Part shown: positions 1,834 to 1,987 of the stretch, in pieces | Numbering within the stretch: position 1 is the first letter of the stretch | How the letters are laid out: each line of letters starts with the position of its first letter | DNA from: a virus | Lineage: Duplodnaviria > Heunggongvirae > Uroviricota > Caudoviricetes | Direction: 5' to 3' (one strand) | Length of the DNA stretch: 20,812 nucleotides | Virus record (IMG/VR): IMGVR_UViG_2534681662_000008 | Location: 1-20,812 of that record | Position numbers and translations under genes: made by a program | The notes under the pieces: model-generated | The model's input: the letters and a program-made list of their open reading frames with translations, nothing else | What the model was told of the DNA's origin: nothing | Database searches by the model: none

Positions 1834-1909
1834 GCCGACTTAGCTCAGCAGGCAGAGCAACTGACTTGTAATCAGTAGGTCACCAGTTCGATTCCGGTAG
1901 TCGGCACCA
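1834..1909 (+). tRNA. tRNA-Thr, anticodon UGU (76 nt, encoded CCA)
   Basis: Manual cloverleaf: acceptor GCCGACT/AGTCGGC (7 bp), D stem GCTC/GAGC, anticodon stem ACTGA/TCAGT with loop CTTGTAA (TGT at 1867-1869, U33, A37), T loop TTCGATT, 3' CCA. One A-C mismatch in the T stem. Overall shape resembles E. coli thrU. Confidence 0.75.
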
Positions 1910-1912
1910 TAT

Positions 1913-1987
1913 GCGGGTATCGTATAATGGCTATTACCTCAGCCTTCCAAGCTGATGATGCGGGTTCGATTCCCGCTACCCGCTCCA
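1913..1987 (+). tRNA. tRNA-Gly, anticodon UCC (75 nt, encoded CCA)
   Basis: Near-identical to E. coli glyT as recalled. Acceptor GCGGGTA/TACCCGC, anticodon stem TCAGC/GCTGA with loop CTTCCAA, T loop TTCGATT. Only 3 nt separate it from the preceding tRNA. Confidence 0.85.

Follow-up and report, generated by a model that had tools for sequence, protein, structure and literature searches.

We propose that the tRNA-Thr(UGU) and tRNA-Gly(UCC) genes of this phage DNA are functional phage-borne copies of the single-copy host genes thrU and glyT, and that they form part of a self-contained cassette supplying tRNAs for heavily used codons; we consider this reading probable, though well short of certain. 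The window here means the whole stretch of DNA that was analysed, 20,812 nt in length. As an annotated feature the pair is already known, because PGAP-annotated genomes and deposited phages carry it under its tRNA labels, and it is routine, widespread cargo of E. coli lambdoid prophages. The additions made by our analysis are modest: a regulatory map resembling that of phage 933W, a dedicated predicted promoter with a structured leader, and a match between the tRNAs and the codon demand of the late genes.

Two intact tRNA genes closely related to host thrU and glyT

In the 20.8-kb window, ARAGORN calls two tRNA genes and no others:

1834-1909, + strand, tRNA-Thr(UGU), thrU-like (ARAGORN anticodon tgt; Rfam tRNA model)
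1913-1987, + strand, tRNA-Gly(UCC), glyT-like (ARAGORN anticodon tcc; Rfam tRNA model)

The whole spacer between them is TAT, at 1910-1912. The original prediction of a Thr(UGU)/Gly(UCC) pair was thus correct in its anticodons, its coordinates and its 3-nt gap. Both genes are intact. Taking a score above the RF00005 gathering score of 29 bits together with a 7-nt anticodon loop as the definition of membership, both qualify as bacterial elongator tRNAs by Rfam and ARAGORN: tRNA-Thr scores 69.8 bits and tRNA-Gly 65.6 bits (E ~1e-13), which is comparable to the host K-12 genes thrU (73.8 bits) and glyT (64.9 bits).

As the host reference, the thrU-tyrU-glyT-thrT-tufB region of E. coli K-12 was aligned with the window. 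The first gene, predicted to have the overall shape of thrU, is identical to it at 74/76 positions; the two changes, T16 -> C and T20 -> C, both lie in the D-loop, where C16 and C20 replace uridines at which dihydrouridine is usual. The second, predicted to be nearly identical to glyT, agrees with it at 73/75 positions and differs by C6 -> T and G67 -> A. The compensatory T-A pair suggested for its acceptor stem is real, the 6:67 pair being C-G in glyT and U-A in the window. The anticodon stem-loops of both genes are those of thrU and glyT, with positions 27-43 identical. ThrRS uses G1-C72, C2-G71, G35 and U36 as identity elements, and GlyRS uses G1-C72, C2-G71, G3-C70, C35, C36 and U73; in our alignment, every change relative to the host falls outside these positions. 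Such close similarity indicates that the two genes are homologues of thrU and glyT and not a chance match.

A predicted promoter and a leader hairpin precede the tRNAs

Two elements were found upstream of tRNA-Thr:

1744-1771, + strand, predicted sigma-70-type tRNA promoter, pT-like (TTGAAA 1744-1749, 16-nt spacer, TAATAT 1766-1771; consensus scan)
1780-1830, + strand, conserved leader hairpin (RNAalifold consensus; GGUUCC 1780-1785 pairs with GGAACC 1825-1830)

The putative promoter lies 62 nt upstream of tRNA-Thr and has an AT-rich stretch upstream of it. Our promoter comparison covered 32 distinct upstream variants of arrays beginning with Thr. TTG is present in 32/32 of them, and in 31/32 it is separated by 16 nt from a -10-like hexamer, which is TATTAT, TAATAT, TATCAT or TATGAT (TAWTAT-type). 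The distance from this hexamer to the leader helix is 6-8 nt (10 in one variant), and the promoter spacers fall into roughly ten unrelated sequence families. This comparative evidence argues strongly for a dedicated sigma-70 promoter driving the cassette. According to the original prediction, the late transcript would be the sole source of both tRNAs. Such exclusive expression is not supported, because a conserved predicted promoter lies upstream of the tRNAs in all 32 variants; an analogous pT is annotated in 933W. Arrays that begin with Met(CAT) carry a TTGCAx-17-TATTAT promoter whose GC-rich discriminator abuts the tRNA, the same as the annotated 933W pT.

We also considered 1744-1771 as pR', which would put the tRNAs in the position of lambda 6S RNA. 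This assignment was rejected: the 933W-type pR'/qut/tR' lies at 1554-1633, and the promoter-leader unit occurs behind three different Q families.

The leader ends 3 nt before tRNA-Thr. In its fold, a GGUUCY/RGAACC helix leads through a 2x2 GA/GA internal loop to a second helix whose sequence varies, as does the tip; the same fold was obtained for 9/10 diverged variants folded individually. In the leader alignment, 88% of cells are paired. Covariation is weakly above controls (22-29/500 shuffles reach the observed values), and we therefore do not claim the structure as proven. A covariance model of the leader gives one match per locus, always abutting tRNA-Thr, the exception being a second cassette copy from which the tRNAs are deleted. 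Rfam, searched at a permissive E-value, has no family that matches either the leader or the block downstream of the tRNAs. The leader was also considered as a decayed tRNA or T-arm relic, but the resemblance of its GGTTC and CCA-like 3' end was not convincing. Processing, 5'-end stability or insulation are our guesses at its role.

A conserved non-coding block with terminator-like hairpins follows the tRNAs

Between tRNA-Gly and the holin genes lies a further conserved segment:

1988-2737, + strand, conserved non-coding block travelling with the tRNAs (26 loci; ends at the holin ribosome-binding site)
2086-2107, 2351-2370 and 2703-2718, + strand, terminator-like hairpins (terminator scan)
2118-2201, + strand, very stable long hairpin of ~28 bp (-43.2 kcal/mol, z -6.8)

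Across 26 loci with differing Q types, array types and lysis cassettes, the block is 76-99.7% identical, and PGAP calls no gene in it. From the scan we infer that the terminators would halt transcription from pT, as well as unmodified transcription from pR', before the holin genes; terminators at this place would be needed if pT is constitutive. The long hairpin sits in the most conserved part of the block and may represent an RNase III site or an sRNA.

The cassette lies in a 933W-like late-operon leader

The surrounding late region was mapped as follows:

272-667, + strand, late antiterminator Q (PF06530; Pfam E 7e-52; BLASTP 101/126 identical (80%) to 933W Q)
672-1536, + strand, immI-like insert between Q and pR' (Rfam, Pfam, promoter/terminator scan)
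672-701, + strand, promoter-like site of the immI-like insert (promoter scan)
708-784, + strand, isrK / c4-a1b1 RNA (Rfam isrK 71.2 bits; c4-a1b1 45.6 bits)
763-780, + strand, terminator in the isrK region (terminator scan)
812-896, + strand, C4 antisense RNA (Rfam C4 78 bits)
931-1536, + strand, ORF6N (antirepressor-like) gene (Pfam ORF6N; relatives annotated antirepressor)
1554-1581, + strand, 933W-type pR' (TTTACG 1554-1559, 16-nt spacer, TATCCT 1576-1581; AF125520 alignment)
~1595-1602, + strand, qut-like stretch (alignment with annotated AF125520)
1612-1633, + strand, terminator tR' (AF125520 alignment; terminator scan)
2744-3951, + strand, lysis cassette: holin 2744-3136, holin 3126-3404, GH108 endolysin 3406-3951 (Pfam; gene calls in 99%-identical loci)

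The genes upstream are a RusA fragment and then Q, and most related loci likewise have Q upstream in the same orientation. From Q onward, the order in the window is the isrK/C4/ORF6N module, pR'/qut-like/tR', the tRNA cassette, the 750-nt non-coding block and the holins, and lambda-like morphogenesis genes come after the lysis cassette. The placement of the pair between Q and the lysis genes, as originally predicted, holds in that Q occupies 272-667 and lysis begins at 2744, but it omits the isrK/C4/ORF6N module and the pR'/qut/tR' elements that lie between Q and the tRNAs.

By alignment, 1554-1633 of the window is homologous to the annotated pR'/qut/tR' of 933W. The site at 672-701, which directly follows Q, was a candidate for pR' and was rejected on this alignment. 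With the 933W-type pR'/qut/tR' at 1554-1633, the segment 672-1536 is therefore an inserted immI-like module. Its order matches the Gifsy-1 gene order antQ-isrK-orf45-anrP (PMC4825925), and it is also like immI of P1.

Two observations concern the morphogenesis genes. Within the head protease/scaffold gene (9990-11606, Peptidase_S49), a 138-nt (46-aa) repeat, ALPEAKGRE...SSGDQII, occurs in three to four tandem copies at 10973-11473. Compared with a 99%-identical relative, the tail gene L (lambda gpL-like, 19768-20217) shows numerous small insertions and deletions and is spread over several reading frames; this could reflect a defective prophage or poor sequence at this place.

The late genes use the matching codons heavily

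We compared 21 late genes (~5,200 codons) with 42 K-12 core genes (14,790 codons). For ACA and GGA, the codons singled out in the original prediction, the late genes reach over twice the frequency of the K-12 sample: ACA occurs 14.3-14.6 times per 1000 codons against 5.4, and GGA 15.2-15.4 times against 6.0. The values for ACG are 22.4-22.6 against 12.1 and those for GGG 22.4-23.0 against 9.2 (Fisher p <1e-6). When 59 codons are ranked by excess use, CAG comes 1st, GGG 2nd, ACG 3rd, CGG 4th, ACA 5th and GGA 6th. All the codons that the two tRNAs read amount to ~7.5% of late-gene codons and 3.3% of those in the host sample. To our knowledge, K-12 has no decoders of ACA and GGA besides thrU and glyT; for ACG and GGG, thrW and glyU can serve as additional decoders. 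This match in codon use supports the idea that the pair serves codon supply. ATA and AGA are also enriched in the late genes, and the codon skew is general.

Allelic variation and an interchangeable slot

To describe variation we compared 134 copies of the pair, found with a search pattern that needed exact tRNA ends and so favoured intact copies. Every cloverleaf pair is kept in 122/134 Thr and 130/134 Gly genes. Double changes at 6:67 and 49:65 are compensated, and U6.G67 wobble intermediates are present among the Gly copies. This pattern suggests purifying selection on the tRNAs. The window alleles are the second commonest (27 Thr and 38 Gly copies of the 134), and the commonest are 100% identical to K-12 (Thr 72/134, Gly 64/134). 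Since most phage copies have the host sequence, their maintenance could be due to gene conversion with the host and not to selection. Thr and Gly alleles reassort freely: each of the four combinations is seen, and in every context. Among loci the tRNAs are 97-100% identical and the flanks are mosaic, the tRNAs alone being common to all.

Some copies are decayed, and anticodon switches in the thrU-like gene are rare. In phage SerU-LTIIb, one of two cassette copies (L002, 1122-1194) has TGT -> TCT, is annotated as tRNA-Arg, and also has changes in the D-stem and anticodon-stem; two IMG/VR contigs (L085, L128) have TGT -> TTT.

The pair stands alone, as in the window, in 56 arrays. In other arrays it makes up the 3' half, preceded by Met(CAT)-Lys(TTT) (37 arrays) or by Met(CAT)-Arg(TCT) (17 arrays). 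The first tRNA of these four-tRNA arrays corresponds to 933W ileZ, and the second is argN-like with a varying anticodon. In L007, L009, L019, L065, L115 and others, that anticodon is TCT, TTT, AAA or TAA, or the loop is irregular, and ARAGORN therefore labels the gene Arg, Lys, Phe, Leu or undetermined.

Related assemblies were found by looking up the head protease/scaffold protein of the window. One of them is 99% identical to the window from 1829 onward, yet carries a four-tRNA array. Three others (L135, L137, L138) are 98.2-99.3% identical from 2644 onward and have a different slot content: at ~1660-2665, Met(CAT) and Arg(TCT) followed by TerB-like and DUF3927 genes replace Thr-Gly and the non-coding block. 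The junction of the window recurs in an IMG/VR contig with 99.7% identity from 1401 onward. Since near-identical late regions are found with other tRNAs, the slot holds interchangeable cargo, and the late genes do not require the Thr-Gly pair. In L017 the cassette is duplicated in tandem (2374-2870 and 2960-3248); the first copy keeps the promoter, leader and downstream block, has lost both tRNAs and retains a remnant of the tRNA-Thr 5' end. From these near-identical loci with other tRNAs, and from the L017 copy without any, the cassette can be seen to be dispensable for these late genes.

Distribution and prior annotation

The Thr-Gly junction pattern occurs at 11 places in species-representative genomes. 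These include E. coli and Shigella flexneri, with three copies each in one strain; the remaining matches are in E. ruysiae, Citrobacter braakii, Enterobacter hormaechei, a Photobacterium and a 423-nt contig in a Corallococcus assembly. The pattern is further carried by at least 119 IMG/VR viral contigs. In Photobacterium sagamiensis (L012, 714-752), the genes form a Ser(TGA)-Thr(TGT)-Gly(TCC)-Asn(GTT) cluster in which 8 nt separate Thr from Gly and the tRNA ends match those of E. coli. Salmonella "phage" matches with Tyr-Thr-Gly were rejected as phage arrays, being whole-genome contigs that contain the host operon.

When the 154-nt pair was searched against 5,426 complete E. coli genomes, counting matches that cover >=80% of it, 6,580 places were found in 5,421 genomes. 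The median of one such place per genome is in keeping with thrU and glyT being single-copy, and roughly a thousand places in the complete E. coli set are left beyond one chromosomal operon per genome. At >=99% identity there are 95 records in this set, labelled tRNA-Thr and tRNA-Gly by PGAP. The pair is also carried and annotated in the deposited phages phi467 (Stx2f, LN997803), SerU-LTIIb (KU052038), vB_EcoS-683R6, JLK-2012 and PhiR47_1, of which the Stx2f phage phi467, the LT-IIb phage SerU and JLK-2012 are toxin phages. A literature search for a functional study of the Thr/Gly pair found none, and passing mention only.

Within the window, which excludes int and att, neither gene looks like a tRNA-derived att site or points to tRNA-dependent lysogeny: both are full length and lie inside the late leader. 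Since 5421/5426 E. coli genomes match at >=80% of the pair with a median of one place, the host thrU-glyT locus is not generally lost.

Proposed role of the cassette and alternatives

Based on these findings, we propose a scheme for the cassette, which consists of promoter, structured leader, tRNA-Thr, 3-nt spacer, tRNA-Gly and a multi-terminator block and is set in a 933W/lambda-like late-operon leader. In the lysogen, its own promoter could make the tRNAs, and the terminators behind them would keep transcription from pT out of the holin genes. After induction, Q-modified RNA polymerase starting at pR' would read through tR', the tRNAs and all the terminators. The tRNAs could then also be cut from the late transcript, and phage replication would multiply the gene copies. 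The extra tRNA-Thr(UGU) and tRNA-Gly(UCC) would raise the decoding of ACA/ACG and GGA/GGG, which are used at ~2x the host core frequency. Our analysis establishes the identity, intactness and conservation of the genes, the conserved promoter, the architecture and the codon demand; from these we suggest that the tRNAs are expressed, processed and beneficial. The interchangeable cargo, the general codon skew, possible conversion with host genes and the possible defectiveness of the prophage weigh against a strict requirement for the pair.

If the promoter acts as predicted, prophage tRNAs may change the tRNA pool of a lysogen without induction. The diagnostic bases of the window alleles (C16/C20 in Thr, U6:A67 in Gly) allow tRNA sequencing to separate phage from host tRNA, and the proposed role in codon supply is therefore directly testable in a tractable temperate system.

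Another possibility, compatible with supply of tRNAs for the late genes but one we doubt as the principal explanation, is that expression from pT in the lysogen aids the host or acquired genes, such as toxins, by way of two low-abundance tRNAs. The conserved, dedicated promoter predicted here agrees with such lysogenic conversion, as do the strong terminators after the tRNAs, which would permit constitutive expression without lysis. The pair is also present in the toxin phages phi467 (Stx2f), SerU (LT-IIb) and JLK-2012, and this possibly defective prophage retains intact tRNAs. However, no toxin or other cargo gene adjoins the tRNAs in the window, and one added gene copy would give the lysogen a modest gain in dosage.

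A further reading, which we regard as unlikely, is that the cassette is a mobile, self-contained tRNA expression unit in which the leader and the 28-bp hairpin are functional RNA elements, acting as processing or stability signals or as a switch. The tRNAs would then be constitutive beside lethal lysis genes, and the C16/C20 and U6:A67 alleles may have distinct modification or toxin sensitivity.

It seems highly improbable that the phage tRNAs replace or outlast host tRNA-Thr and tRNA-Gly that tRNA-targeting toxins of the host or a competitor cleave or inactivate during infection; we know of no E. coli tRNase specific for tRNA-Thr(UGU) and tRNA-Gly(UCC). The window alleles do depart from the host sequence at D-loop positions 16 and 20 and in the 6:67 pair, and they have persisted within phage lineages. 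Counter-defence is a general hypothesis for phage tRNAs, and its expected mark is an anticodon loop that deviates from that of the host tRNA close to or at the site of nuclease cleavage (van den Berg et al. 2023, PMC10264068). In the window, however, positions 27-43 are unchanged from thrU and glyT, and the commonest phage alleles do not differ from the host genes at all.

Least probable of all is that the near-invariant 75-nt tRNAs are neutral hitch-hikers, serving as homology patches for recombination or refreshed from the host without translational benefit: mosaic breakpoints do coincide with the edges of the tRNAs (5', 1822-1833; 3', ~2644-2737), alleles reassort freely and some copies are decayed or anticodon-switched, but >90% of copies keep the full cloverleaf with changes compensated, the promoter and leader are conserved across highly diverged variants, and breakpoints at the edges of conserved blocks are expected anyway.

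Comparison with known systems

Our preferred reading, a cassette that supplies tRNAs for heavily used codons, can be set beside several known systems. The predicted resemblance to the host tufB-operon tRNAs is close: the pair is a near-copy of its counterparts in thrU-tyrU-glyT-thrT-tufB, with 97% identity and the same order and orientation. The phage pair lacks the host tyrU, the host spacers and flanks and the host promoter, and TAT joins its two genes.

Phage T4 likewise encodes Thr(UGU), Gly(UCC), Ile(CAU) and Arg(UCU) in its tRNA cluster, including decoders of Ile AUA and Arg AGA. These specificities are the ones found in the lambdoid arrays. T4 is virulent, its tRNA sequences are unrelated and not host-identical, and its regulatory context is different.

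The deposited phages and prophages that carry the pair share the TAT spacer with the window and differ from it in Q types, upstream modules and lysis cassettes.

The closest regulatory counterpart is the ileZ-argN-argO slot of the Stx2 phage 933W, whose annotation (AF125520) runs Q, pR', qut, two terminators, "pT; putative tRNA promoter", ileZ-argN-argO, a terminator and stx2. Both phages have the layout Q, pR', qut, tR', tRNA promoter, tRNAs, terminator and downstream late genes. Like late-leader cargo of the 933W type, the window pair follows Q, pR' and tR' and precedes the lysis genes, all on one strand, and by sequence it has a promoter of its own; the predicted class of this promoter differs from 933W pT, and it bears the leader hairpin. 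The pT-type promoter of 933W abuts the first tRNA, whereas Thr-first arrays have a ~50-nt structured leader in between. In 933W, pR' overlaps the end of Q, whereas in the window the isrK/C4/ORF6N module separates the two. The tRNA specificities differ, and no toxin genes follow the window tRNAs. The original prediction had called the pair a cargo different from ileZ-argN-argO. This stands for the specificities, in a slot shared with 933W, but the pair is not unusual: it is widespread and annotated, and in many relatives it forms one array with ileZ-like and argN-like tRNAs, as the 3' half behind a pT-type promoter. The Thr/Gly pair is thus the counterpart, and often the array partner, of the ileZ/arg tRNAs of Stx phages.
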